Below, one piece after another: positions 1-46,709 of a stretch of 64,000 bases of DNA. Source of the DNA: Arenicellales bacterium (GTDB lineage: Bacteria; Pseudomonadota; Gammaproteobacteria; Arenicellales; Poriferihabitantaceae). The notes beneath the pieces were generated by a model. That model had not been told where the DNA came from and searched no databases. It was given only the letters and a program-made list of their open reading frames with translations. The first letter of the stretch is position 1. Every line of letters starts with the position of its first letter. A program made the translations under genes and the position numbers. The stretch is taken from assembly GCA_965116335.1 (NCBI GenBank), contig OZ220677.1, forward strand, positions 16,834 through 80,833. The letters run 5' to 3'.

Positions 1-3000
1 GCCGCCGACCCGCAGCTGACCATTGTCGCGGGCGAAACCAAGAGTTCCGGTGTAGTTGCTATCCAGGCGCTGGACAATAGCGAGGATGATGCGATTGACA
101 ACCGGCCGGTGCGCCTGTCGGCGACGGCCAGTGGCGGGCGTGGCATTGCGGACCCCGCCGAGGTTACGCTGACAATCCAGGATGATGACAAGGCGGGCGT
201 GAATTTCTCTGAAAACACGATTGAGGTGGAGAAGGATGAAACCACGGTCATCCAGGTACGCCTGACCTCACAGCCGACTATGGATACCACGGTAACGCTA
301 ACCAGTAGCGATCCGAACGTGGCCGAGTTGAGCGCCAGTCCGCGTGGACGCAGTGTGCAACTGCTATTCACTCCACAGAACTGGAACGTGCCGCAATCGG
401 TCACCGTTCACGGTATCGAGGACGGTGATCTGTCGATTGAGACCCATATTCAAAGCGCCGACCCGATGTATGCCAATGCGCCACCGCCGCCGCCCTTGCA
501 GACCAATGTTATTGGTGTGCCGACACTGACCCTGACGGCCAGCGAAGACTACATAGATGAAGGCGCGGCGGCGACGTTTACGATTGCGGCAGACCGGGTA
601 TCGCCGATTGATGTGCCGGTGCGGATTGATGTGGGCTACGGTTGCTGCATCGGCGTAGGAGAAGTCCTGGCCGAGGGCCAGAAAGGCATGCGAACGGTTA
701 TCCTGCCTCAGGGACGAACATGGGTCCGATTCGAGGTGCAGACTGCTGACGATGAGGTTATTCATGGCGAGGGTATCAAACGCGGCAACAAGTCGATTAC
801 TGCACAGATTGTCGAGAGCGATGCCTACCAGATCTCCCACACAGGCAATGATGCGCTGGCGCGTTTCATGTATTACGATTCCGTGATGGTGAGCGAAAAT
901 GATTCGGTGCCGCCCGCGGACATTGTGGTTTCTGTCTCTGGCCCGGAGCGGGTGATGGAGGGTGACACTGCGCAGTTCACCTTCACGGCATCGAAAGCGC
1001 CCCTGAACGATCTGAAGATCAGCTTTTTCCTGGATTTGTTTGGTGACTTCAATACCAACCCCGTTTATACCTTCGACCCGAATGTGATGAGTGGTCTTGA
1101 AAAAGATTTCGTGACCCTGCCAGCCGGAGCGCTGCAAACCACGTACAGCCTCACCATCCGGGATGATGATCGTACTCAGGGTCACGGCAGGATGTTGGTC
1201 AGAGTCACGGGCGGCTCCATGAAGTCCGTCGATGGTATCATCCATCGCAGTTATAGCATTGCGGGTCATCTCGACCGCGAGGTAAGGTTCGATGTTATTG
1301 ACGATGAAACCTCACCCTCTGTTGAGTCCCAGGCTTCGCCCCAGGAATCGCCGCAGCAGGCAGAGCAGGCAGAGCAGGATGAACAGGAAGAGGATGGACA
1401 GGAGACGGCGAGGGCGCTGGCCGTAGCGGCTTGTGTGTCTGATGAACTCATAGAGAGGGGCGAGGACTATTATCAGGCAAACCGCAACAAGGCATCGAAC
1501 TACGGGTCAAACTGGTTCAGTGTTCTGGTTGCGTTTGATCAGCGGACGCCGTCAGACTGGACTACTGACAGTCGCAGCATTGAACCGATGACTGCTGCCT
1601 CGTCTCGCGAGCGGGAGAGTAGCTGGCGCGGGTGGCGTCCCTTTACCAAGGCGCTGGAATGTGTGGAGACGGCAATAGCAGAAGCTGAAGTAGAGGCAGA
1701 GGCAGAAGCGCAAGCCGAGGCCGGGGCGCAAGCCGAACAACAGCCAGAACAACAGCCAGAAGCAGAAGCGCAACCGGCGCAGGTACAGGATGGACAGGTC
1801 GAGGTGCAGACTGAGCAGACCGAGGTAGAAGTACAGGCCGAAGTACAGCCAGAACCAGAACAGACACCCCCACCCACTCCTGCAATCCGTCTGTCGGCGG
1901 GTTCTGCTGTAGACGAGGGCGAGAGTGCTGAATTTATCCTGACCGCTGATCCGGCGCCGCTTGACGATCTGGTGATTACTTATGCGGTGGAGCAGACAGG
2001 CGATTACCTGGCTGATCCCGGAGTCGGGCAACGTACCATCACCCTGGCGGCAGAAGCGACCACTATGGTGCTTTCTGTAGACACAGTAGACGATGAAATG
2101 GACGAACCGGATGGTTCGGTGAGTGTCACGCTGGCTACCGGCGCTGGCTATACACTGACTACCCGGCAGAGCCGTACCGTGACCGTGAATGATAATGATG
2201 TGATGCCGCCTCCGGTGCTGTCGATTCGCGATGCCACCTTGCATGAAAACCAGGGCGGTGGATACTTTACCGTGACCATAGAGGAGCCAGCAGACTGGCC
2301 GGTACGTTTCCACTATGCGACCCGCGATTCCTCTCCGGTATCCGCGAGAGCCGATCAGGACTATCAGGCGCATGATCGTTCAGCACGGATGCAAAGCCAA
2401 TTCGAGCCTGGAGAGACCGAGATGAAACTCTATATCGAGATCTACGATGACAGTCATGATGAGAACGCTGAAACCTTCGAGATCGAACTGTTCGATGCGG
2501 ACGTAGGCAGTATGCCCGATGTGCCGGTATTGATTCCAGACGGTATAGCGGTTGGCACCATTGTCGATGATGATCAGATGCCCGCTGCCTGGTTGGCGCG
2601 TTTCGGTCGCAGTGTTGCCCAACAGGCGCTGGATGGTATTACAGATCGCATTGAGGCGCCGCGCACGGCGGGAACCGAAAGCACATTTGCCGGTATTTCC
2701 ACTCAATCTTCCGGTCTGGATCAAGACCTGCCGGGGCAATCCGATGTCGTGCAGCGATTCGGTGTGGGTAATGACACGTATGGTTTTGGCACCGACGGTA
2801 TGGAGAATGGTGGCGAACCGCAGTATCGTTCCATGACAATGTCCGATGCCTTGATGGGTGTTTCCTTTACGACCACCAGCCAGAAGGATGCCAGTGGTGG
2901 CAGTGTAGCCTTCTGGGGACGTACTGCCCAATCCAGCTTCAATGGCAACGAAGACAACCTCTCGCTGGATGGTGAGATCACCTCTGCCCTGCTTGGCATG

Positions 3001-4065
3001 GACTATGCCAGAGACAACTGGATGGGCGGCGTGACTCTGATGCAAAGCAGTGGCAAAGGCGGTTATACCGATTCTGGTGTATCGTCCAGCTGCCCGCAAG
3101 AGGATAGCACGCCATGCGCTGGCGGCGCATCGGCGGGTGCGGGTACACTGGAGTCTTCATTGACCGCACTGATCCCTTATACCTCCATGCAAGTATCGGA
3201 TCGTATGCAATGGTGGGGTGCCCTGGGTCATGGTATTGGCGAGGTTGATCTGAAACCCGGAGCGGGCGATTCACTGACCTCTGATATTTCCTGGAATATG
3301 GCGGCTATTGGACTGCGCGGAGACCTGATTCAAGCGCAGGCAGGGCAGGGTCTTTCTTTAGCCCTGACTTCCGATGCACTATGGACCCGAACGGCATCAG
3401 AGCAGACACAAGAACTGGCGGCATCCGATTCAGACACTATGCGCTTGCGGTTGGGTCTGGAAGGCAGTTGGGCGTTTGAACTGAAAGATGGCGGTCAGTT
3501 GACGCCGAAGCTCGAGATGGGATTACGACAGGATGGTGGAGATGCGGAGACCGGTGGTGGCGTAGAGATTGGAGGAGGTATTTCCTGGTTGAATCCGGGA
3601 CTTGGACTTTCCCTTGATCTATCTGGACGGACGTTGGTTTCGCATGACGACGAAGGGTTGGAGGATCGGGGTTATGCGGCCTCACTGGAATTTGATCCGG
3701 ACCCATCCAGTGAGCGCAGTCCGTCCTTGACCTTGCGCCAGGATTGGGGGAATTCTTCCGGTGGTGGATTGGATGCGATGTTCACATCAAGCCCGCTCAC
3801 ACAATCAGGCGGAGGGAGTCAGGAGAGTCGCTGGACGGCGGAGGCGGCCTGGGGCTTCCCGGCATTGGGTGGACGCTTCACGGGGAGTCCTCATGCCGGT
3901 CTTGGTTTTTCTGGTGACAGTCGGGATTTCACGGTGGGTTGGCGTTTGAAGCCTGATTCCGAGGATGCGCCGAACCTTTCTCTGGGCGTACAGGCCACCC
4001 GGCGCGAGAATGGCGCAGACACCCCGCAGCACAGCGCCGGATTCGAAATGAGCATCCGATGGTAG
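1..4065 (+). CDS. Large Calx-beta repeat surface protein with C-terminal autotransporter-like beta-barrel (5' partial; frame open from base 1)
   Basis: Frame 1 reads AADPQLTIVAG... without a stop into the 109..4065 ORF. Repeated Calx-beta-like motifs (VTLTIQDDD, VRFDVIDDE, VTVNDND, AVGTIVDDD), then WLARFGRSVA leading into a Gly/aromatic-rich barrel-like region ending FEMSIRW. Confidence 0.8.
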   Translation, partial: AADPQLTIVAGETKSSGVVAIQALDNSEDDAIDNRPVRLSATASGGRGIADPAEVTLTIQDDDKAGVNFSENTIEVEKDETTVIQVRLTSQPTMDTTVTLTSSDPNVAELSASPRGRSVQLLFTPQNWNVPQSVTVHGIEDGDLSIETHIQSADPMYANAPPPPPLQTNVIGVPTLTLTASEDYIDEGAAATFTIAADRVSPIDVPVRIDVGYGCCIGVGEVLAEGQKGMRTVILPQGRTWVRFEVQTADDEVIHGEGIKRGNKSITAQIVESDAYQISHTGNDALARFMYYDSVMVSENDSVPPADIVVSVSGPERVMEGDTAQFTFTASKAPLNDLKISFFLDLFGDFNTNPVYTFDPNVMSGLEKDFVTLPAGALQTTYSLTIRDDDRTQGHGRMLVRVTGGSMKSVDGIIHRSYSIAGHLDREVRFDVIDDETSPSVESQASPQESPQQAEQAEQDEQEEDGQETARALAVAACVSDELIERGEDYYQANRNKASNYGSNWFSVLVAFDQRTPSDWTTDSRSIEPMTAASSRERESSWRGWRPFTKALECVETAIAEAEVEAEAEAQAEAGAQAEQQPEQQPEAEAQPAQVQDGQVEVQTEQTEVEVQAEVQPEPEQTPPPTPAIRLSAGSAVDEGESAEFILTADPAPLDDLVITYAVEQTGDYLADPGVGQRTITLAAEATTMVLSVDTVDDEMDEPDGSVSVTLATGAGYTLTTRQSRTVTVNDNDVMPPPVLSIRDATLHENQGGGYFTVTIEEPADWPVRFHYATRDSSPVSARADQDYQAHDRSARMQSQFEPGETEMKLYIEIYDDSHDENAETFEIELFDADVGSMPDVPVLIPDGIAVGTIVDDDQMPAAWLARFGRSVAQQALDGITDRIEAPRTAGTESTFAGISTQSSGLDQDLPGQSDVVQRFGVGNDTYGFGTDGMENGGEPQYRSMTMSDALMGVSFTTTSQKDASGGSVAFWGRTAQSSFNGNEDNLSLDGEITSALLGMDYARDNWMGGVTLMQSSGKGGYTDSGVSSSCPQEDSTPCAGGASAGAGTLESSLTALIPYTSMQVSDRMQWWGALGHGIGEVDLKPGAGDSLTSDISWNMAAIGLRGDLIQAQAGQGLSLALTSDALWTRTASEQTQELAASDSDTMRLRLGLEGSWAFELKDGGQLTPKLEMGLRQDGGDAETGGGVEIGGGISWLNPGLGLSLDLSGRTLVSHDDEGLEDRGYAASLEFDPDPSSERSPSLTLRQDWGNSSGGGLDAMFTSSPLTQSGGGSQESRWTAEAAWGFPALGGRFTGSPHAGLGFSGDSRDFTVGWRLKPDSEDAPNLSLGVQATRRENGADTPQHSAGFEMSIRW

Positions 4066-4221
4066 GGGGAGCGGGTGGGGGGAATGATGTTGGCGTGTGG
4101 ATCGGAATGATCTCGTAGGGGAGGGTCTCTGTGCCCTCCCGCGAATGATCGGACGGGTATCAACGGTAGCGGACACCCACAGAGGGGCGTGGGCAGGCTC
4201 TACGCATCGGTAATTGCGGGA
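4064..4221. repeat. REP-like (GTAG-type) palindromic repeat mosaic
   Basis: Modules ggggagcgggtggggggaatgatg, cgtaggggagggtctctgtgccctcccgc and gcggacacccacagagggg recur at many intergenic sites in the window. Confidence 0.8.
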
Positions 4222-4884: not shown

Positions 4885-5143
4885 TTTCGACGGTTTCGGG
4901 AGGGTACAAGACCCTCCCCTACGATGACAGGTAACCGCAACCGTATTGTTATGGATTCCCGCATCTGCGGGAATGACGGGTGGTTGGGGCATGTTCCGGC
5001 GGTTGTGTCCCCCCATCCAATCCGCAAGCGGATTGGATTCCCCCTCAAGGGGGGAATGATTTGGACGGTTCACTCCAACCTTGAGGGGGAATCCGCGATA
5101 CAAGGGCGCAAGCCCGCCGGGGAGCGGGTGGGGGGAATGATGT
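4885..5143. repeat. REP/BIME-like mosaic
   Basis: gggagggtacaagaccctcccctacg, ggattcccgcatctgcgggaatgacg, atccaatccgcaagcgattggat and ccccctcaaggggggaatga modules. Confidence 0.85.
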
Positions 5144-5265: not shown

Positions 5266-5577
5266 ATGCACACTGTAATCGCTGACAAGAAAGGGAAACT
5301 GGCAGAGATCTGCCAACGTTACGATGTTGTACGGCTTGAGGTTTTCGGATCAGCGGCACGCGGCACAGATTTCGACCTGGCCAAAAGTGACGCAGATTTT
5401 CTTGTTGAGTTTAACCCTCATAGCAATCTGTCACCTCTTGAACAGTTCTTCGGCCTTGTCGATGCGCTGAGCAACACATTGGAACGCCCCGTGGACCTGG
5501 TCGAAAATCACACATTTCGCAACCCGTATCTGAGTACATCCATCAACGAATCCCGCGAAGTTATTTATGCGTCGTGA
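5266..5577 (+). CDS. mntA: Minimal nucleotidyltransferase (MNT) antitoxin
   Basis: LEVFGSAARG...SDADFLVEF (GS-x-DxD Pol-beta NTase motif), RPVDLV; overlaps a DUF86 gene. Confidence 0.88.
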   Translation: MHTVIADKKGKLAEICQRYDVVRLEVFGSAARGTDFDLAKSDADFLVEFNPHSNLSPLEQFFGLVDALSNTLERPVDLVENHTFRNPYLSTSINESREVIYAS

Positions 5578-5923
5578 CGCTCGTGTCCTTCTGACCGATA
5601 TCAAGCAGGCAAGCGCCGACATTCAATCGTTCACCGACGGCATGGATAGCGCCGCCTACTCCGCTGATTCACTGACCCAAGCTGCGGTCGAACGCAAGTT
5701 CGAAATCATCGGCGAAGCGGTAAATCGTCTGCACATCAACCATCCCAACCTCGCCACAAGAATTCCCGAAATGCGTCGCATCATTGATTTTCGGAACTAT
5801 CTGGCTCATGGCTATGATCACGTAGCACCGAGACTCGTCTGGCTTTATGCTACCAGCAGCCTGTTGGAACTGAACGATGCGGTTCAGATGCTGCTTACCG
5901 AGATGGAAACACCTGACGAATGA
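5567..5923 (+). CDS. hepT: HEPN / DUF86 RNase toxin
   Basis: AVERKFEIIGEA...RRIIDFRNYLAHGYDHV (RxxxxH HEPN motif). Confidence 0.88.
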   Translation: MRRDARVLLTDIKQASADIQSFTDGMDSAAYSADSLTQAAVERKFEIIGEAVNRLHINHPNLATRIPEMRRIIDFRNYLAHGYDHVAPRLVWLYATSSLLELNDAVQMLLTEMETPDE

Positions 5924-6148: not shown

Positions 6149-6445
6149 ATGCGGAAAAGAAATATTTACAGTAAAGAGTTCAAATTAGAAGCTCTTCGTC
6201 AATGGAAGCAGGAAGGTCAGTCTGCTACGGCTTTGGCGAAGAGTTTAGGTTTGCGTCCGAACATGCTATACAAATGGGAGGATCAGTTGAGTCGTCATGG
6301 TCGGCAGGCGTTTTTGGGTTCGGGTCGCCAGCCGGTAGTTTTGACGGATGAACTGTCTCGTCTCAAGCAGGAGTTGTCGGATGTCAAGATGGAGCGTGAT
6401 ATTCTAAAAAAGGCGGCGGCGTACTTTGCTCGAGAGCTGAAGTGA
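6149..6445 (+). CDS. IS3 transposase OrfA (HTH)
   Basis: YSKEFKLEAL...LYKW...ELSRLKQELSDVKMERDILKKAAAYFARE. Confidence 0.92.
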   Translation: MRKRNIYSKEFKLEALRQWKQEGQSATALAKSLGLRPNMLYKWEDQLSRHGRQAFLGSGRQPVVLTDELSRLKQELSDVKMERDILKKAAAYFARELK

Positions 6446-7305
6446 AGTACGCTTTTATTGAACGGTATCGTGGTTGTTTTCCGGTGGTTTGCATGTGTCG
6501 TGTGATTCGAGTGAGTCGTTCGGGTTATTATGCGTGGCGGAGTCGGGGTGCGAGCGCGGGGAGTTTATTTCGGCGCAATCTTTTAGTTGAGATTCGGCGG
6601 GTACATCAGCAGTTTCAGGGTCGTTATGGTGCGCTCAAGTGTTGGCGTCATTTGCGTCGGGAAGGGATTGCTTGCGGTCGGGATCAGGTCGTCAAGTTAC
6701 GGAGTTTGCACGGCATATTCAGTCAGCGCCGTCATCGTTTTGTGGTTACTACCCGCTCTAGGCCGAGTGATCGGGCGGCGGCGAATCAACTCAATCGTGT
6801 ATTTTATGCGAGTGCTCCGAATCGGGTCTGGGTGGGGGACGTGACGTTTATTGAAACCCGCCAGGGTTGGTTATATCTGGCCGTATTACTGGATCTCTAT
6901 TCGCGCAAGGTGGTGGGCTGGTCCATGGCCAATCGCAATGATACCTCTTTGGTCAAAGCCTGTTTGGACATGGCGGTTGCACATCGCCAACCTGCGCCTG
7001 GTCTCATTCATCATACAGACCGCGGAGCGACCTACACTTCTGAACTCTATCGTTATGCGCTGAACTGTAAGGGAATCATCGCATCCATGAGTCGAACAGG
7101 AGATTGTTGGGATAATGCAGTCGCGGAAAGCTTCTTTGGTCAACTGAAAAACGAATGGGCCTGGCAGCAGGGCCGTCCGAATCGGGAACAGGCCAGAGCG
7201 AGTCTGTTCGAATATATCGAATTGTTTTACAATCGACAAAGACTCCACCAGACTTTGGGTTATATCTCACCCGTGGAGTATGAAAGCAATCAATGTGTTT
7301 CTTAA
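6442..7305 (+). CDS. IS3 transposase OrfB (DDE integrase core)
   Basis: WVGDVTFI, LIHHTDRG, CWDNAVAESFF, YIELFYNRQRLHQTLGYISP; in the -1 frame relative to OrfA. Confidence 0.93.
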   Translation: MKYAFIERYRGCFPVVCMCRVIRVSRSGYYAWRSRGASAGSLFRRNLLVEIRRVHQQFQGRYGALKCWRHLRREGIACGRDQVVKLRSLHGIFSQRRHRFVVTTRSRPSDRAAANQLNRVFYASAPNRVWVGDVTFIETRQGWLYLAVLLDLYSRKVVGWSMANRNDTSLVKACLDMAVAHRQPAPGLIHHTDRGATYTSELYRYALNCKGIIASMSRTGDCWDNAVAESFFGQLKNEWAWQQGRPNREQARASLFEYIELFYNRQRLHQTLGYISPVEYESNQCVS

Positions 7306-7335: not shown

Positions 7336-7845
7336 ATTCCCCCTCAAGGGGGGAATGATTTGGACGGTATCACTCCACCCTTGAGGGGGAGTCCGCGATA
7401 CAAGGGCGAAGCCCGCCGGGGAGCGGGTGGGGGGAATGATGTTGATACTTGGATCGAAATGATGTTGTAGGGGAGGGTCTCTGTGCCCTCCCGCAGATGT
7501 CGGGACAGGTATCAACGATAGCGGGCACCCACAGAGGGGCGCCCCTACGATGACAGTAAGCGCAGTATCTGAATGGTTGTGGATTCCCCCTCAAGGGGGG
7601 AATGATTTGGACGGTATCACTCCACCCTTGAGGGGGAGTCCGCGATACAAGGGCGAAGCCCGCCGGGGAGCGGGTGGGGGGAGTGATGTTGATACTTGGA
7701 GCGAAATGATCTCGTAGGGGAGGGTCTCTGTGCCCTCCCGCAGATGTCGGGACAGGCAACGGTAGCGGGCACCCACAAGGGGCACCCCTACGATGACTTT
7801 AATTGCAGATTCCGTATTATTGTGGATTTCCGCATTTGCGGGAAA
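7336..7845. repeat. Tandem REP/BIME mosaic, two ~247-bp direct units
   Basis: Unit starting attccccctcaaggggggaatgatttggacggtatcactccacc at 7336 and again at 7583; the same block also occurs at ~5038-5142. Confidence 0.88.
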
Positions 7846-7971: not shown

Positions 7972-8009
7972 AAAAACCCTTGACAAGGGTTTTTGCGTTT
8001 TCTGACAAT
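7972..8009 (+). promoter_or_regulatory. Putative promoter of the collagen operon with palindromic operator over the -35
   Basis: Perfect 11-bp inverted repeat AAAAACCCTTG-A-CAAGGGTTTTT (7972-7994) containing TTGACA (7980-7985); weak -10-like GACAAT at 8004-8009 (18-bp spacer). Confidence 0.55.
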
Positions 8010-8012
8010 ATT

Positions 8013-8066
<54 letters not shown>

Positions 8067-8367: not shown

Positions 8368-9714
8368 ATGAAGAAATCGAGAAAAAGCTCAAGGCAGGCG
8401 GCGCAGGTCCGCCGTGATCTGCCGGAATTGCCGGTGAAACGGCGAAACTGGTATGGCCCGGTATCGGTCGGAGCCACTTCGTTGATGCTGGCAGGCGCCG
8501 CGGGGATGGCATCGGTCGCAGGGTTCTACTCGACTGAGGTACAGGCGCAGGAAATGCCGGGCCCACCGGGTCCACAGGGGCCGCCGGGACCAACGGGACC
8601 GCAGGGAGAACCCGGTCCAGCCGGGCCGCCGGGAGCAGATCAAGAACAGGGGGCTACGGGCCCACAGGGGCCGCCGGGAATGGACGGTCCGCCGGGCCCG
8701 CCGGGCCCGCCGGGAATAGACGGCTCACCGGGAGCACGCGGCCCGGCAGGTCAACCGGGCCCGGTTGGTCCGGCTGGCAATCCAGGGCCACCTGGAGACC
8801 CGGGACCATCGGGACCTACCGGCCCGCAGGGCGACCCAGGTAATACGGGGGCCACCGGTCCAGTCGGGGCGCGGGGAGATACTGGTCCAACTGGAGACCC
8901 GGGGCCATCAGGCCCTCCCGGCTCGCAGGGGCCGCCTGGATCGGATGGTGATCCGGGACCGATGGGACCGCCGGGAAGCTCTAGTGCAGGCCCTCCCGGC
9001 CCACCGGGACCGCGGGGATTAAAGGGTGATACAGGCCCATCGGGAACAGGTGGCCCTCCCGGCTCGCAGGGGAGTCTGGGTCCTCCCGGCCCTCCCGGCC
9101 CGACGGGTCCACCGGGAGACACTAACATGGGACCATCGGGCCCTCCCGGCCCGCAGGGGCCGCCTGGATCGGATGGTGATACCGGTCCGCCGGGACCGGC
9201 AGGTACTGCCGGAGCGGGCAGTAGCCAGCCGGGACCACCCGGCCCATCCGGGCCGCCGGGACCGCCGGGAGACAGCAGTACATCCAGCGTTCCCGGTCCG
9301 CCGGGCCCACCGGGACCGCCCGGCCCGCCGGGGCCACCCGGCGCTCCGGAGGGCTGGGTTGTGAATCAGGAGAGGCGTATTGATACGATCGTGCAGGGGG
9401 TCAACGAGCACGGTCAGCGCATCCGCTCGCTACAGTTGTCGTTCGATACGTTGCGAGACGAGTCGAATGAGGGCACGGCCATTGCCATTGCGCTCGGTGG
9501 GATACAGATCCCCTATAACAAGGAGAGCGCTTTCTCGTTGCGGCTGGGTCATTATCGATCCGGCAACGCGGTTGCGGCTGCCGGCGCTTTCCGTCTGCCG
9601 CCCGGCGCCCTGCGTCTGCCGGAGGATGCCAGCGCCGTGGTGGATGTCGGGGTGGCACATGGCTTCGAGTATTCACAGACTGGCGCGACCGCAGGTATTA
9701 CCTGGGGCTGGTAG
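8368..9714 (+). CDS. Collagen-like trimeric autotransporter adhesin 1 (Gly-X-Y passenger, coiled-coil, YadA-type anchor)
   Basis: Extended leader ending VQA-Q; ~82 Gly-X-Y triplets (8560-9348, hand count); heptad stalk ([25 protein letters not shown]); anchor-like [10 protein letters not shown]...[19 protein letters not shown]...[10 protein letters not shown]. Confidence 0.88.
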
Positions 9715-9734
9715 GACAGGACAGGAAAGCGGTC

Positions 9735-11105
9735 ATGCACAAGAAACCAGACAAGCTCGCCCAAAGCGGCGCGCCGGGTAGTGAGGACGCGCCGAATCTG
9801 CTGGCGAGGAGACGCAACTGGTATGGGCCGGTATCGGTCGGGGCTACTTCGCTGATGCTGGCAGGCGCCGCGGGGATGGCATCGGTCGGGGGGTTCTATT
9901 CGACCGACGTACAGGCGCAGGCGGGGCCACCGGGGCTGACGGGACCGCCGGGACCACCGGGGTCAGCAGGTCCGCCGGGAGAGCCGGGGCCGGATGGGCC
10001 AGCAGGAATGCGCTTTGGAGATTCAGCACCGGGTAATCCGGGACCGCCCGGCCCAGATAGCACAGTAGCCGGTCCGCCGGGTCCGCCGGGGCTGCCGGGA
10101 CCGTCAGGCCCATCAGGTCCCGTAGGATACGACGGAGCACCGGGGATGCGGGGGCCAGCCGGAGCAGCCGGACCAGCCAGTACGACAGCAGGGCCGCCGG
10201 GATCAAAGGGATCAAAGGGACCACAGGGTGATCATGGGGCGCGAGGGGGGGCGGGGTCAACCGGTTCCAAGGGTAATCCGGGACCGCCAGGACCGCCGGG
10301 TGACCCGGGTGCTCCCGGAACGGATGGGGCAACAGGGCCGCAGGGAGCATCAGGCCCACCCGGATCGGGTGGCAGCAACCCAGGGCCGCCGGGTATGACA
10401 GGGCAGAAGGGTGCAACGGGTGACCGGGGATTTACCGGCCCGCCGGGGCCATCGGGGCCATCGGGAATCCAGGGACCGCCGGGGTTACAGGGTTCAGCCG
10501 GTCCACCCGGACCGGGTGGTAGTAACCCAGGCCCGCCGGGGCCGCCGGGGCCAGCAGGTCAATCCGGGATTCAGGGCCCGCCGGGGTTACAGGGCCCACC
10601 GGGCACGGCTGGCATTGGAGCGGGACCGGCAGGACCACCCGGCCCGGCGGGGCCAAAGGGCACCCCCGGAGAGGTCACTGTTCAACCGGGTCCGTCGGGC
10701 CCTCCCGGCCCGCCGGGACCACCGGGGGCGTTGCGTCTGCCGGAGGGTTGGCTTACGCATCAGGAAAAACGCGTGGATGAGGCGTTCAGTGAGGTCACTC
10801 GACACGGTCAGCAAATCCGCTCGCTGGAGTTATCGTTCAATGAGTTACGCGCCGAATCGCGGGAGGAAACCGCTATCTCCATTGCGCTGGGTGGTCTGCG
10901 TATCCCTTATGACAAGGATCGAGCCTTTGGGGTGCGATTGGGTCATTATGAGTCCAGTAATGCCGTTGCGGCTGCCGGAGCTTTCCGTTTGTCCAAAGCT
11001 TTTCTGCTGCCGGAGAAATTCCGCGCCGAAGTGAATATCGGTAGCGCCTATGGGTTCGATTATTCGCAGGCTCGTGTGAGCGCCGGTATTACCTGGAGAT
11101 GGTAG
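9735..11105 (+). CDS. Collagen-like trimeric autotransporter adhesin 2 (paralog)
   Basis: Leader nearly identical to paralog 1 ([35 protein letters not shown]); Gly-X-Y region 9924-10730; stalk; anchor [10 protein letters not shown]...[18 protein letters not shown]...SAGITWRW. Confidence 0.88.
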
Positions 11106-11713
11106 AGGCGGTATTGCCACTTCAGCGGCAGCAAAGCGCACAGACCTCCGGGTCGTGTCCTGAAGCGCTGTGGCGAAACAGCCCGATGCTGCCGTTGGTC
11201 AGTGAGGGTGAATTCCTGTCGCCCGCGCAGTGCGCTATCCTGTCGGAGTTTCTGGAGGCGAATGTACGGCGTCTGGGGCGGGAGAATGTGGAACCGTTCT
11301 TTTCCTGGCGGCAGATCAATTACGCCCAGGTCGATAACTCCCGTGTACGGAAAATCATGGACGACGTGCGCTGTCGCATCGCCATGATCCTGTCGGATGG
11401 ATTGCACGGCAGTACCGTGTACCCGGAATATACCGATCTGGTGCTATGGCGGGAAGGCCAGAATATGAATGTCCATCGGGACGACCTGCCGCCACATTTC
11501 GAGCATCGGCTGTATTCCAGCATCCTGTACTTGACCTCGTGTCACGGCGGCGCCACTGTTTTCCCGACTGTCGGCATTGAAGTGCCTCCACAAGCGGGGC
11601 GGATGATTGCTTATCCATCTGGCCTGCCGCACGGTGTGCGTCCGGTGGTGGCGGGCAAGCGACACACGCTGGCCTCTTGGTATACCGGGTTGATAGATAA
11701 ACGGGAAGCGTAA
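11099..11713 (+). CDS. 2OG-Fe(II) dioxygenase, prolyl-hydroxylase-like (start may be ATG 11186)
   Basis: HxD (VHRD), YSSILYL...GGATVFP...[12 protein letters not shown], distal His (PHGVRPV), 2OG-binding R (KRHTLASWY); no signal peptide; ATG overlaps the upstream stop region. Confidence 0.85.
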
Positions 11714-12303
11714 TGCGTAGTGAATGGGCTTATTATGACTCGCTGATTAGCGCGGAGGAATGTCAGGCGATCATCGACGACGCATTGCAGCGGGAGGTTG
11801 CGCTTGGCACGGTCGGGCTGGATGGCACTGAAATCAATCCGGGCATCCGTCACGGCGAGGTCATCTTCCTGCCGAGACGCGACCCGGCGTTCGTGCATGT
11901 TTTTCAGTTGATTGATTACTGCGTGGATGAGGCGAATGATGAATGGTTCGGAGTGGACTATAACCGACAGGGCGCGCGCAGCCTGCAATTCAGCATCTAT
12001 CGGGGGGAGGATAGTGAAGACGGGGGGCATTATTACCATGCCCATCAGGACACGGTGCTGGTCAGTGGCGACCGTCCAACCCAGCGTAAGCTGAGCGTCA
12101 CCGTGCAGCTGTCGGACCCGGATGACTACGAGGGGGGCGATTTCAAGATGCATTATGTGTCTGCCCAGCCGCCCGCCGATGCCCTGCGCCGACGTGGCAC
12201 GGTACTGGTTTTCCCGTCTCTGGTGATGCACGAGGTGTCGCGTGTGACTCGTGGCACTCGCTATTCCCTGGTCGGCTGGTATCCGGGGCCGGGATGGCGA
12301 TAG
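11713..12303 (+). CDS. 2OG-Fe(II) dioxygenase, P4Hc/PKHD-type
   Basis: YHAHQD (HxD), RKLSVTVQLSDPDDYEGGDF, GTVLVFPSLVMHEVSRVTRGTRYSLVGW; TAATG stop-start coupling with the upstream gene. Confidence 0.88.
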   Translation: MRSEWAYYDSLISAEECQAIIDDALQREVALGTVGLDGTEINPGIRHGEVIFLPRRDPAFVHVFQLIDYCVDEANDEWFGVDYNRQGARSLQFSIYRGEDSEDGGHYYHAHQDTVLVSGDRPTQRKLSVTVQLSDPDDYEGGDFKMHYVSAQPPADALRRRGTVLVFPSLVMHEVSRVTRGTRYSLVGWYPGPGWR

Positions 12304-12326
12304 AATTTGAGAGGCTTGAACCGGCC

Positions 12327-12788
12327 ATGATTCGCACAAACAAGCCGGTTCGTTCGCCGGATAACTGGAATGTGGTTCTGCATGATCGTTATATCAAGGA
12401 TCTGTCGTTCGAGAATCCGGGCGCCCCGGTTGTGCCGCACAAGGACGAGCTGCATCTCAATGTGTCGGTGCGGGTAGACAGTCGGCATCATAGCGCCGAG
12501 GCGGGCAATGAGTTTCATGAGGTGACGTTGACGGTTGAGGTGACCGGCCACCATCATTCGCGGACTGTGTTTCTGGTCGAGCTGATGTATGCGGGTTTGT
12601 TTGAACTCACCGGGCTTGAGGAGGAGCCGCGTCAACGTTTCCTGTTGTGTGAGGCTCCCCGTATGCTGTTTCCCTGGGTCAATCGCATATTTGCAGACCT
12701 GACACGGGATGGCGGCTTGCCCACGCTGAATCTGTCGCCACCGGATTTCGTGACTCGTTATGAGGAGGTGGTGGAGGGGGAGAAATAG
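12327..12788 (+). CDS. secB: SecB protein-export chaperone (alternative start 12294)
   Basis: YIKDLSFENPGAP...EVTLTV...VFLVELMYAGLF...LLCEAPRMLFPW...LTRDGGLPTLNLSPPDF matches the SecB signature. Confidence 0.88.
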   Translation: MIRTNKPVRSPDNWNVVLHDRYIKDLSFENPGAPVVPHKDELHLNVSVRVDSRHHSAEAGNEFHEVTLTVEVTGHHHSRTVFLVELMYAGLFELTGLEEEPRQRFLLCEAPRMLFPWVNRIFADLTRDGGLPTLNLSPPDFVTRYEEVVEGEK

Positions 12789-46592: not shown

Positions 46593-46709
46593 GTGGCGGA
46601 TCCAGAGCACCAGAGTCCTGACACCCGAAATGATCGCTGCGGCTGCTTCCTTCCGGACCTGACCGGGTTCACGACCTGTCGCCATCAGGGCGATCCTCTT
46701 TCACCGCCA
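46593..46709 (-). ncRNA. ffs: Signal recognition particle (4.5S) RNA
   Basis: Minus strand core GAACCCGGTCAGGTCCGGAAGGAAGCAGC, closing GGCGG/CCGCC stem, directly upstream of dnaX. Ends are approximate. Confidence 0.93.

Follow-up and report, generated by a model that had tools for sequence, protein, structure and literature searches.

Bacterial collagens are held to fold without hydroxyproline (Hyp), collagen modification being regarded as essentially eukaryotic with giant-virus exceptions; a 2022 review restates this view, describing most bacterial collagens as devoid of Hyp and citing only the in vitro activity of a Bacillus anthracis prolyl 4-hydroxylase (P4H), which hydroxylates (PPG)n peptides (PMC8968730). 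Iyer et al. (2010) predicted operons in which bacterial collagen-like/tail-collar proteins accompany β-hydroxylase/PhyH-family 2-oxoglutarate (2OG) dioxygenases and sulfotransferases (PMC2938197). Here we analyse a 64,000-nucleotide stretch (hereafter the window) of contig OZ220677.1 from an Arenicellales bacterium, in which five genes encode two collagen-like proteins of the trimeric autotransporter type (COL1 and COL2), two Fe(II)/2OG dioxygenases (DIOX1 and DIOX2), and a SecB (coordinates in Table 1). We propose, with a probability of roughly 0.7, that these genes form one functional unit making post-translationally modified surface collagen fibres in a sponge-associated gammaproteobacterium. 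If true, an operon in which animal-like collagens rich in Pro go together with two enzymes of the prolyl hydroxylase type would overturn the textbook view.

The five genes and the collagen-like proteins

A preliminary description of the window had placed five co-oriented genes at 8368–12788, and all five open reading frames (ORFs) are found there. Most of its junctions also hold: a 20-nt gap separates COL1 from COL2, a TAATG overlap couples DIOX1 to DIOX2, and DIOX2 and SecB are separated by 23 nt or overlap by 10 nt, depending on which SecB start is used. The overlap it assumed between COL2 and DIOX1 is probably not real; the DIOX1 orthologues are all 173–177 aa and start at the position of Met30, so the DIOX1 start likely lies at 11186, with an 80-nt gap after COL2. 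A terminator scan gave no convincing terminator within the operon, weak candidates falling in coding sequence, and a convergent gene for a CoA-binding-domain protein abuts the SecB stop codon. The profile and structure searches that had been suggested recovered collagen, two dioxygenases of prolyl hydroxylase fold, and SecB, together with a probable YadA-like anchor.

COL1 and COL2 score 120.6 and 102.6 bits, respectively, with Pfam Collagen (PF01391; cut-off 27.2), and their triplet runs are broken by a few short interruptions. The first G-X-Y triplet lies 2–4 residues past the leader site, hence neither protein appears to have a head domain; with a rise of 0.286 nm per residue, the collagenous region of each would be approximately 70 nm long if triple-helical. 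As had been noted, the passengers are rich in Gly-Pro-Pro (GPP), which makes up 34% of the triplets in COL1 and 28% in COL2. Proline occupies 61% (COL1) and 49% (COL2) of X positions and 45% and 37% of Y positions, threonine occupies 13% and 8% of Y positions, and all six lysines in the two G-X-Y runs (five of five in COL2) are at Y. In human collagens 34–42% of Y positions are Pro/Hyp, whereas in bacterial collagens 32–48% are Thr (PMC8968730, Table 1); the predicted composition of COL1 and COL2 thus resembles that of animal collagens and is unlike that of typical bacterial ones. Membership of the Scl/Lcl families was considered and rejected, the NCBIfam matches being repeat-driven and far under the cut-offs. 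An orthologous collagen-anchor protein on a 4.65-Mb chromosome assembled from a metagenome (L013 1349–9313, equivalent to L002 3–7313) exceeds 2655 aa and has ~830 triplets in long near-identical repeats, with a predicted triple helix of ~0.7 µm.

In the leaders of COL1 and COL2 the n-region is basic and contains the conserved motif (K/R)RxWYxP, the h-region is Ala/Gly-rich and weakly hydrophobic (mean Kyte-Doolittle 1.6–1.9), and a ..VQA↓Q site follows; a Sec-type leader, as read by eye and from hydropathy, is kept in 12 homologues. The YadA anchor claimed in the preliminary description is not reached at the Pfam threshold, the C-terminal 120 aa scoring 12.6 and 15.9 bits with YadA_anchor (PF03895; cut-off 22.7) and a homologue (L017) scoring 18.7. 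A profile built from 14 aligned homologous C-termini does, however, find the YadA membrane anchor (2LME) as its best PDB match (E=6e-5), in an alignment running to the terminal Trp, followed by NadA (9e-4); both alignments take in the preceding helical neck. On the strength of these profile matches we take the C-terminus of COL1 and COL2 to be, probably, a divergent type Vc anchor.

Recurrence of the gene set and its linkage to collagen

A neighbourhood search, also suggested beforehand, found the gene set again in many other genomes. A one-genome-per-species scan with DIOX2 gave 15 loci; six-frame translations of these, and of contigs from exact look-ups, were searched for G-X-Y runs and for matches to the window proteins. 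The set recurs in at least 12 species-level metagenome-assembled genomes (MAGs), with the cluster including SecB present in at least six unrelated flanking contexts. Three versions occur. The window type (window/L001, L002/L013, L007, L008, L009, L011, L012) comprises, in this order, one or two collagen-anchor genes, DIOX1, DIOX2, and SecB. In a sister type (L003–5, L014, L016), SecB and a collagen-anchor gene are followed in turn by a lysyl hydroxylase (LH)-like dioxygenase, a glycosyltransferase (GT) that is a GT25+GT_PLOD fusion, and DIOX2; a third version (L030, from a Mediterranean sponge metagenome) has, in sequence, a collagen-anchor gene, the LH-like enzyme, the GT, DIOX1, DIOX2, and SecB. 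DIOX2 is thus the component common to every version. The LH-like enzyme has a PHHD motif and matches human LH3 (3e-9) and mimivirus L230 (5e-7); the GT matches the LH3 GT domain (3e-41), Pfam GT_PLOD (2e-61), mimivirus R699 (2e-38), and COLGALT1 (1e-16). Neither an LH-type dioxygenase nor a GT25/GT_PLOD enzyme was found in the entire 64-kb window.

The locus closest to the window is L007 (88% DIOX2 identity), and ENA analysis ERZ24894576 includes a contig of almost the same sequence as the window. The named carriers are MAGs of Ca. Poriferihabitaceae (placed in the Arenicellales, Gammaproteobacteria), Ca. Porisulfidus, Arenicellales, Rhodospirillales, and Limimaricola, and all named or traceable carriers are sponge-associated. 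In the literature searched, ‘Poriferihabitaceae’ appears in a sponge genome note only, and ‘Porisulfidus’ in another such note as well as in two studies of bacteria from hydrothermal plumes. On a Rhodospirillales chromosome (L019 9965–11566), only the last 77 residues of DIOX2 are present, followed by a 444-aa ORF weakly matching SecB; this is apparently a decayed cluster.

The preliminary description had asked whether dioxygenase homologues elsewhere are linked to collagen genes; homologues of DIOX2 at 32–53% identity still adjoin collagen-like genes, and the linkage holds even in phages, at 32–44%. A Limimaricola MAG (53% identity) encodes a 382-aa, GPP-rich, Lys-free collagen with a YadA-like anchor (18.7 bits) and DIOX2 only. 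A contig of a T4-like phage (44%) encodes a 1941-aa G-X-Y protein, and a second phage type (40%) a G-x-K-rich collagen-like protein of 855–909 aa, a methyltransferase, and GT25/GT_PLOD. In the cultured Synechococcus phage S-CAM9 (NC_031922.1, L110 1–8396; 34%), an annotated tail fibre with 59 G-X-Y triplets, rich in G-x-K, precedes a pair of genes labelled ‘2OG-Fe(II) oxygenase’ and one for a ‘hypothetical protein’ of 613 aa, which has matches to GT25/GT_PLOD (3e-60) as well as to the LH-like enzyme (4e-30). In all, 154 phage records match DIOX2. The phage versions have no leader, anchor, or SecB. Two GC-rich, phage-like contigs from a sponge metagenome (L028 8001–9081 and L029 8001–9090) carry a DIOX1–DIOX2 pair adjoining Acb2/Tad1-like and Tad2-like anti-defence genes; there is no G-X-Y gene within 8 kb of the pair, and Pro makes up 16% of the C-terminal portion of a neighbouring 2641-aa protein.

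The bacterial cluster probably either arose from an S-CAM9-type cassette or is sister to it. It could be asked whether the cluster is simply a recently captured tail-fibre cassette, whose products serve mainly in phage–bacterium interaction, as a coat that masks receptors or as a decoy: in phages, enzymes of these families are encoded beside collagen-like tail fibres, the window cluster lies beside an IS3 element, a toxin–antitoxin pair, and repeat elements, and simple-sequence repeats imply on/off switching of the kind usual in surface structures on which phages or immunity exert selection. Among the named or traceable carriers the cellular version is, however, confined to sponge-associated bacteria, which fits a host-related role, and phage and host purposes are compatible, with a mechanism that would be the same in either case; we regard a mainly phage-directed purpose as improbable.

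The simple-sequence repeats in question include a perfect (GCCA)n tract ~300 nt 5′ of COL1, which has 13.2 copies in the window and 8.2 at the same place in a near-identical strain (L001 6311–6343), and which looks like a candidate simple-sequence contingency locus for the adhesin operon. Poly-C tracts are present in the 5′ coding end of two orthologous collagen genes (C14 at L008 8712–8725; C20 at L012 8097–8116), where the collagen body is not in the reading frame of the upstream Met (MIQKK.. and MSKRQ..); these could be phase-OFF alleles or homopolymer assembly errors. The repeats, with their suggestion of phase variation, the kinship with phage cassettes, and the LH/GT versions of the cluster all go beyond the preliminary description.

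The enzyme content of the loci tracks the composition of their collagens, in a manner that is suggestive given that the samples are few and related. In collagens of DIOX1-containing, window-type clusters, 37–49% of Y positions are Pro, and GPP accounts for 19–43% of triplets when DIOX1 is present versus 0–13% when it is not (Mann-Whitney p=0.0009). Lysine in the cluster collagens is found 66 times at Y versus 8 times at X; of the five collagens encoded beside an LH-like enzyme and GT, four have Lys at 12–26% of their Y positions, versus 0–6% elsewhere. In the reverse direction, the anchor profile retrieved 80 metagenome loci at 30–55% identity. Non-collagen passengers are encoded at 79 of these, none of which is near a dioxygenase, GT, or SecB, whilst the sole locus with a collagen passenger (L030) has the LH-like enzyme, the GT, DIOX1, DIOX2, and SecB.

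These results bear on the possibility that the adjacency is incidental, with the dioxygenases acting on housekeeping proteins (EF-Tu, ribosomal proteins) or on small molecules, as other P4H/PKHD-type enzymes of bacteria are described to do. Such substrates are suggested by some of the structural neighbours of the enzymes, which include the EF-Tu hydroxylase PPHD, the B. anthracis P4H with EF-Tu, and PiuC, and a few DIOX2 homologues are without a collagen neighbour. We nonetheless consider incidental adjacency very improbable indeed: the linkage is kept across at least 12 species, two classes, and phages; the reverse test gave one of one versus none of 79; enzyme content follows collagen composition; and the cluster moves between genomic contexts as a block.

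Enzymes, chaperone and proposed pathway

The dioxygenases were described beforehand as having complete HxD...H...R motifs and no leader, and both features hold: H97-x-D99, H149, and R159 of DIOX1 (Met30 numbering) are invariant in 22 homologues, H111-x-D113, H173, and R183 of DIOX2 in 28, and no leader peptide was found on either protein. The best PDB sequence match of DIOX1 is human P3H1 (5e-7 with the single sequence, 3.7e-7 with a profile). Its AlphaFold2 model (pLDDT 89) retrieves with Foldseek the B. anthracis P4H (8e-11), then vCPH of PBCV-1, PPHD, P3H1, and human collagen P4H (C-P4H)-II; amongst viral models, the closest are cyanophage proteins annotated as P4H-alpha or procollagen-proline 3-dioxygenase. 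The DIOX2 profile matches PKHD-type hydroxylases in the PDB (7.5e-9), then the Chlamydomonas and PBCV-1 P4Hs and P3H1, and its model (pLDDT 86) retrieves Pseudomonas putida PPHD (1e-11), PiuC, PHD2, Chlamydomonas P4H, and vCPH. Prolyl hydroxylases predominate among the 50 PDB matches listed for each model, the remainder comprising enzymes of the PKHD type (PiuC, Sbal_3634) and, in small number, further 2OG oxygenases; both enzymes are thus predicted to fold like prolyl hydroxylases.

Alignment of the two enzymes with each other (hhalign probability 96.7%) places them as distinct families within one clade. By word-indexed search DIOX1 is narrow, with 35 clusters at 49–94% identity among 5.8e9 sequences; an exhaustive hidden Markov model search sets it within a larger group of small proteins resembling P4H, with 451 representatives at E<=1e-10, some of which are fused to a Skp1-type Hyp N-acetylglucosamine (GlcNAc)-transferase domain, a fusion that points to prolyl hydroxylation. 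DIOX2 has ~35 orthologue clusters at 60–86% identity. Orthology of DIOX1 with the first dioxygenase of the GT clusters was tried and rejected (hhalign probability only 85%), the latter being LH3-like and both being carried by L030. As single-domain proteins of 175 and 196 aa, DIOX1 and DIOX2 have neither the peptide-substrate-binding domain nor the PDI β subunit that characterise animal C-P4H; judged from their sequences, they would resemble P4H in their working and lie outside the animal C-P4H family.

The chemistry of the two enzymes may differ from that in animals. It has to be considered that they modify the collagens other than by animal-type 4-hydroxylation of proline, with products that may be glycosylation or cross-linking handles and not helix stabilisers; DIOX2 could be a lysyl or X-position prolyl hydroxylase with DIOX1 as the Y-position Pro 4-hydroxylase, or one of the two could make 3-Hyp. 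Several observations favour such schemes. Phages L026/L027 and S-CAM9 pair a DIOX2-like enzyme with fibres that have Pro only at X and are Lys-rich at Y, beside GT25/GT_PLOD, and another phage fibre (L022) is almost without Pro at Y; DIOX1 is nearest in sequence to a prolyl 3-hydroxylase, its phage relatives are annotated as procollagen-proline 3-dioxygenase, some of its relatives bear the Skp1-type Hyp GlcNAc-transferase domain, and six of six lysines in the G-X-Y runs of COL1 and COL2 are at Y. Collagens with no Lys, however, keep DIOX2, either alone (L017, L024) or with DIOX1 (L011, L012), so Lys cannot be the general target of DIOX2; the nearest structural neighbours of DIOX2 are 4-hydroxylases, and a separate LH3-like enzyme occurs exactly where Y-position Lys is abundant. 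On balance we judge a departure from animal 4-Hyp chemistry unlikely.

SecB was given as the last gene of the unit, and Pfam SecB supports this with 113.5 bits (cut-off 26), as do PDB matches to the SecB proteins of Haemophilus influenzae (3e-16) and Escherichia coli (3e-15), though it scores under every NCBIfam SecB equivalog cut-off (best 122.8 against 143; TIGR00809 94.6 against 102.8). The motifs KD(I/L)SFE and FL.E are retained, as KDLSFE and FLVEL in the window; in E. coli SecB they contain D20, E24, L75, and E77, which we take to be SecA contacts. Its nearest relatives outside the cluster are alphaproteobacterial SecBs (~45% identity), the hosts being Gammaproteobacteria. Wherever a cellular locus has DIOX1 or the LH/GT pair, SecB adjoins the cluster, some loci carrying it at the 3′ end and others at the 5′ end; on a single 7.58-Mb contig there are two SecBs of the cluster type and two DIOX1s. 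SecB was not found at the minimal collagen + DIOX2 loci (L017, L024/L025) nor in any phage version, where export is unnecessary. Some cluster SecBs have Pro/Gly-rich C-terminal extensions (L002 8708–9235; L030 4394–5002), that of L002 including a collagen-like PPGPTGPTGPGG stretch; the window SecB has a short acidic tail only.

Whether this SecB has a collagen-specific, anti-folding role may be questioned, as it could be a general export chaperone, or a general paralogue beside a large secreted substrate. It is ordinary-looking by Pfam, with motifs that align with E. coli and H. influenzae SecB; the Limimaricola MAG has a minimal collagen + DIOX2 module with no SecB nearby; and the best 120 SecB matches include no second SecB on any carrier chromosome, a gamma-type copy being one that would rank lower. 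A general role nevertheless seems to us unlikely in view of its sub-cut-off equivalog scores, its alphaproteobacterial affinities, the doubled pair on the 7.58-Mb contig, and its adjacency to all DIOX1 or LH/GT loci of Gamma- and Alphaproteobacteria, at either end and in at least six flanking contexts.

Taking the five genes as one collagen-making unit, the following pathway may be outlined. COL1 and COL2 would be made as pre-proteins whose long, basic leader of low hydrophobicity directs them to post-translational SecA/SecB export and not to the signal recognition particle (SRP). On the unfolded chains in the cytoplasm, the leaderless DIOX1 and DIOX2 would hydroxylate prolines of the G-P-P-rich repeats; animal P4H and LH likewise require unfolded chains. 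As there is no leader on either dioxygenase, nor on the sister clusters' GT with its dependence on UDP-sugar, and the substrate would leave through Sec, modification would have to precede export. The two dioxygenases probably act on different positions, one on Y-position Pro at C4 and the other on X-position Pro or on Pro-Hyp-Gly; an assignment of DIOX2 to Y-position Pro at C4 and of DIOX1 to X-position Pro in Pro-Hyp-Gly would fit the P3H1 match and the GPP correlation. In the sister clusters, the LH-like enzyme and the COLGALT1-like/LH3-GT-like fusion would act on Y-position Lys.

A Pro-rich chain, more so a hydroxylated one, would tend to trimerise, and a co-encoded SecB would be an evident means of preventing this: it would keep the chains monomeric and export-competent and pass them to SecA, a scheme which fits both the weakly hydrophobic leader and the distribution of SecB over the cluster types. 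In the outer membrane, the YadA-like C-terminus would form a trimeric barrel and coiled-coil neck that set the register. Because the C-terminus of a type Vc passenger is the first part to emerge, and it is at the C-terminus that collagen folding is nucleated, anchor and neck could take the role of the C-propeptide, nucleating the triple helix at its C-terminal end and allowing it to zip from C to N as the passenger emerges. The product would be fibres of ~70 nm without a head domain.

Several points weigh against this interpretation, the whole of which is built on comparative genomics. The anchor of COL1 and COL2 is below the Pfam YadA_anchor threshold, and the collagen genes are repetitive sequences read from assembled MAGs. 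The closest structural matches of the dioxygenases, PPHD and the B. anthracis P4H, are deposited as EF-Tu modifiers, and the phage contexts are compatible with DIOX2 acting on X-position Pro or on Lys. No collagen-like gene lies within 7–10 kb at some DIOX2 or DIOX1–DIOX2 loci (L006, L018, and the phage-like L028/L029). The composition correlations are drawn from ~15 phylogenetically related proteins, and the LH/GT locus L030 is an exception to them, with no Lys in the visible part of a collagen gene that is cut by the contig end. A housekeeping second secB was not found in the best 120 SecB matches, so that the ‘dedicated’ status of the cluster SecB is one that we infer. Lastly, at sea temperatures (Pro-Pro-Gly)n helices do not depend on Hyp for their stability, so hydroxylation is not obviously required for folding.

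The most likely purpose of the fibres is adhesion to, or mimicry of, the collagen-rich sponge matrix. Host mimicry, already raised in the preliminary description, is borne out circumstantially, in that every named or traceable carrier is sponge-associated; the purpose itself is supposition. A wider picture, which we offer tentatively and at rather less than even odds, is that sponge-associated Proteobacteria run a prokaryotic collagen biosynthesis (yielding Hyp, and in the sister clusters glycosylated hydroxylysine) built from a phage tail-fibre cassette together with a Sec leader, an anchor of YadA type, and a SecB of its own; the phase-variable fibres so made, 70 nm to 0.7 µm long and chemically mimicking the host matrix, would serve persistence in the mesohyl.

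The surroundings of the operon contain further features. A promoter-like site upstream of COL1 matches 10 of 12 consensus positions (the scan found five sites versus 1.5 expected from shuffles). Directly 5′ of the operon, a 247-bp element with internal inverted repeats (repetitive extragenic palindromic (REP)- or miniature inverted-repeat transposable element (MITE)-like) stands in tandem as 98% identical copies (7336–7830), with partial copies at 4066–4189 and 5070–5134, after a giant gene and near the toxin–antitoxin pair. The giant gene, of which the window holds the 3′ end (1–4065), has a Calx-beta domain, encodes 13,131 aa in the sister contig L001, and probably specifies a giant adhesin beside the collagen operon. 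Between the two lie an MNT/HepT-type nucleotidyltransferase–RNase toxin–antitoxin pair (5266–5923) and an IS3-family transposase (orfA/orfB; 6149–7305); the insertion sequence arrangement in L001 is different. The sole Rfam match in the window, far from the cluster, is the bacterial small SRP RNA (46601–46699, − strand).

Table 1. Predicted features of the operon and its upstream region (window coordinates, nt)
Feature	Position	Strand	Match or note
Promoter-like site (TTGACA, 18 nt, GACAAT), ~360 nt 5′ of COL1	7980..8009	+	10/12 consensus positions; consensus scan only
(GCCA)13 tetranucleotide tract between promoter-like site and COL1	8014..8066	+	Tandem Repeats Finder, 13.2 perfect copies
COL1, collagen-like trimeric-autotransporter-type protein, 448 aa	8368..9714	+	Pfam Collagen 2e-35
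COL1 leader, aa 1-60	8368-8547	+	ends ..VQA↓QE
COL1 collagenous region, aa 65-327, 82 triplets	8560-9348	+	
COL1 helical neck and YadA-like anchor, aa 328-448	9349-9711	+	
COL2, COL1 paralogue, collagen-like autotransporter-type protein, 456 aa	9735..11105	+	Pfam Collagen 1e-29
COL2 leader, aa 1-61	9735-9917	+	
COL2 collagenous region, aa 64-333, 79 triplets	9924-10733	+	
COL2 neck and anchor, aa 334-456	10734-11102	+	
DIOX1, Fe(II)/2OG dioxygenase, 175 aa from Met30	11186..11713 (longest ORF from 11099)	+	Pfam 2OG-FeII_Oxy_3 1e-11
DIOX2, Fe(II)/2OG dioxygenase, PKHD/prolyl-4-hydroxylase clade, 196 aa	11713..12303	+	Pfam 2OG-FeII_Oxy_3 7e-15
Cluster SecB, 153 aa	12327..12788 (alternative start 12294, 164 aa)	+	Pfam SecB 1e-32

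Comparison with known systems

Collagen-like surface proteins of bacteria such as streptococcal Scl1/Scl2 and Legionella Lcl resemble COL1 and COL2 in being surface-displayed G-X-Y proteins, with weak, repeat-driven NCBIfam matches, but have LPXTG or other anchors and no linked hydroxylases. Bacterial adhesins of this kind are stabilised without Hyp, their Y positions being polar or Thr-rich and not Pro-rich (PMC8968730). The operons of Iyer et al. are similar in co-encoding 2OG dioxygenases predicted to hydroxylate bacterial collagen-like proteins; they differ in using other dioxygenase families, in having sulfotransferases in place of GT25/GT_PLOD, and in having no autotransporter anchor, SecB, or link to sponge symbionts.

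B. anthracis, with its P4H and the exosporium collagen BclA, provides a bacterial enzyme of collagen-type P4H fold, the top Foldseek match of DIOX1. This enzyme has been reported to act on EF-Tu too; to our knowledge no conserved operon joins it to its collagen, and we know of no work establishing Hyp in BclA in vivo. The organism is, moreover, Gram-positive, with no autotransporter and no SecB involved. Compact enzymes of 175–196 aa working in a bacterial cytoplasm would, if the proposal is correct, be what producers of recombinant collagen have lacked.

With the trimeric autotransporters of type Vc (YadA, NadA, Hia), the COL proteins share an N-terminal Sec leader, a helical neck, and probably a short C-terminal anchor, which ends in an aromatic residue, YadA and NadA being the profile matches of this part; NadA is itself controlled by an upstream tetranucleotide repeat. 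They differ in that the whole passenger is collagen-like, with no coiled-coil stalk and β-roll head, and in their divergent, sub-Pfam anchor. In AIDA-I/Aah heptosylation and HMW1/HMW1C glucosylation, as is proposed here, the passenger is acted on ahead of translocation by a cytoplasmic enzyme that is dedicated to it and encoded alongside; that modification is, however, glycosylation of Ser/Thr/Asn and not 2OG-dependent hydroxylation, and no dedicated SecB is known to take part. Should the present scheme be true, it would link trimeric autotransporter secretion to C-to-N collagen folding and would suggest client-specific use of SecB.

Amongst viruses, mimivirus (with the lysyl hydroxylase/glycosyltransferase L230, and R699) and PBCV-1 (with vCPH) are non-animal genomes that likewise encode collagen-like proteins, small hydroxylases of their own, and an LH3-type GT; vCPH is one of the top structural matches of DIOX1, and the sister clusters' LH-like enzyme and GT have L230 and R699, respectively, among their matches. 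These are eukaryotic viruses that assemble in cytoplasmic factories, without Sec export, an outer-membrane anchor, or SecB, and the window, unlike mimivirus, is without the LH and GT components. The S-CAM9 cassette resembles the bacterial cluster in its succession of a collagen-like fibre gene, a DIOX2-type enzyme, and a GT25/GT_PLOD + LH-like protein, whereas its fibre has no leader or anchor and is Lys-rich with Pro only at X, SecB is absent, and the genes are generically annotated. If true, our reading offers a function for the unexplained ‘2OG-Fe(II) oxygenase’ genes of marine cyanophages, and a candidate window on the transfer of collagen-modification enzymes between phages, bacteria, giant viruses, and early animals.

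The animal route (C-P4H, P3H1/CRTAP/CypB, LH1-3, COLGALT1, HSP47) is like the proposed pathway in that unfolded G-X-Y chains are modified before trimerisation, and in its C-terminal nucleation and C-to-N folding; the content of Y-position Pro, the restriction of Lys almost only to Y, and the sequence matches to P3H1, LH3, and COLGALT1 are further likenesses. It differs in that the bacterial enzymes are single-domain proteins without peptide-substrate-binding domain, PDI subunit, or CRTAP, and in that modification would take place in the cytoplasm and not the endoplasmic reticulum, with SecB as the chaperone and a β-barrel and coiled coil in place of the C-propeptide. If true, this would be the first cellular non-eukaryotic system to make animal-type modified collagen, and would provide a molecular hypothesis for symbiont life inside the collagen-rich body of the oldest animal lineage.

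The preliminary description knew of no described system with this gene set, and our literature searches on sponge symbionts, trimeric autotransporters, and bacterial or phage collagen-like proteins with hydroxylases likewise gave no description of it; a preprint on Ralstonia RcpA/B was considered as a precedent and rejected, as it concerns unrelated small collagen-like proteins. The kinds of system that the gene set draws on, bacterial collagen-like adhesins on the one hand and viral and animal collagen modification on the other, are known.

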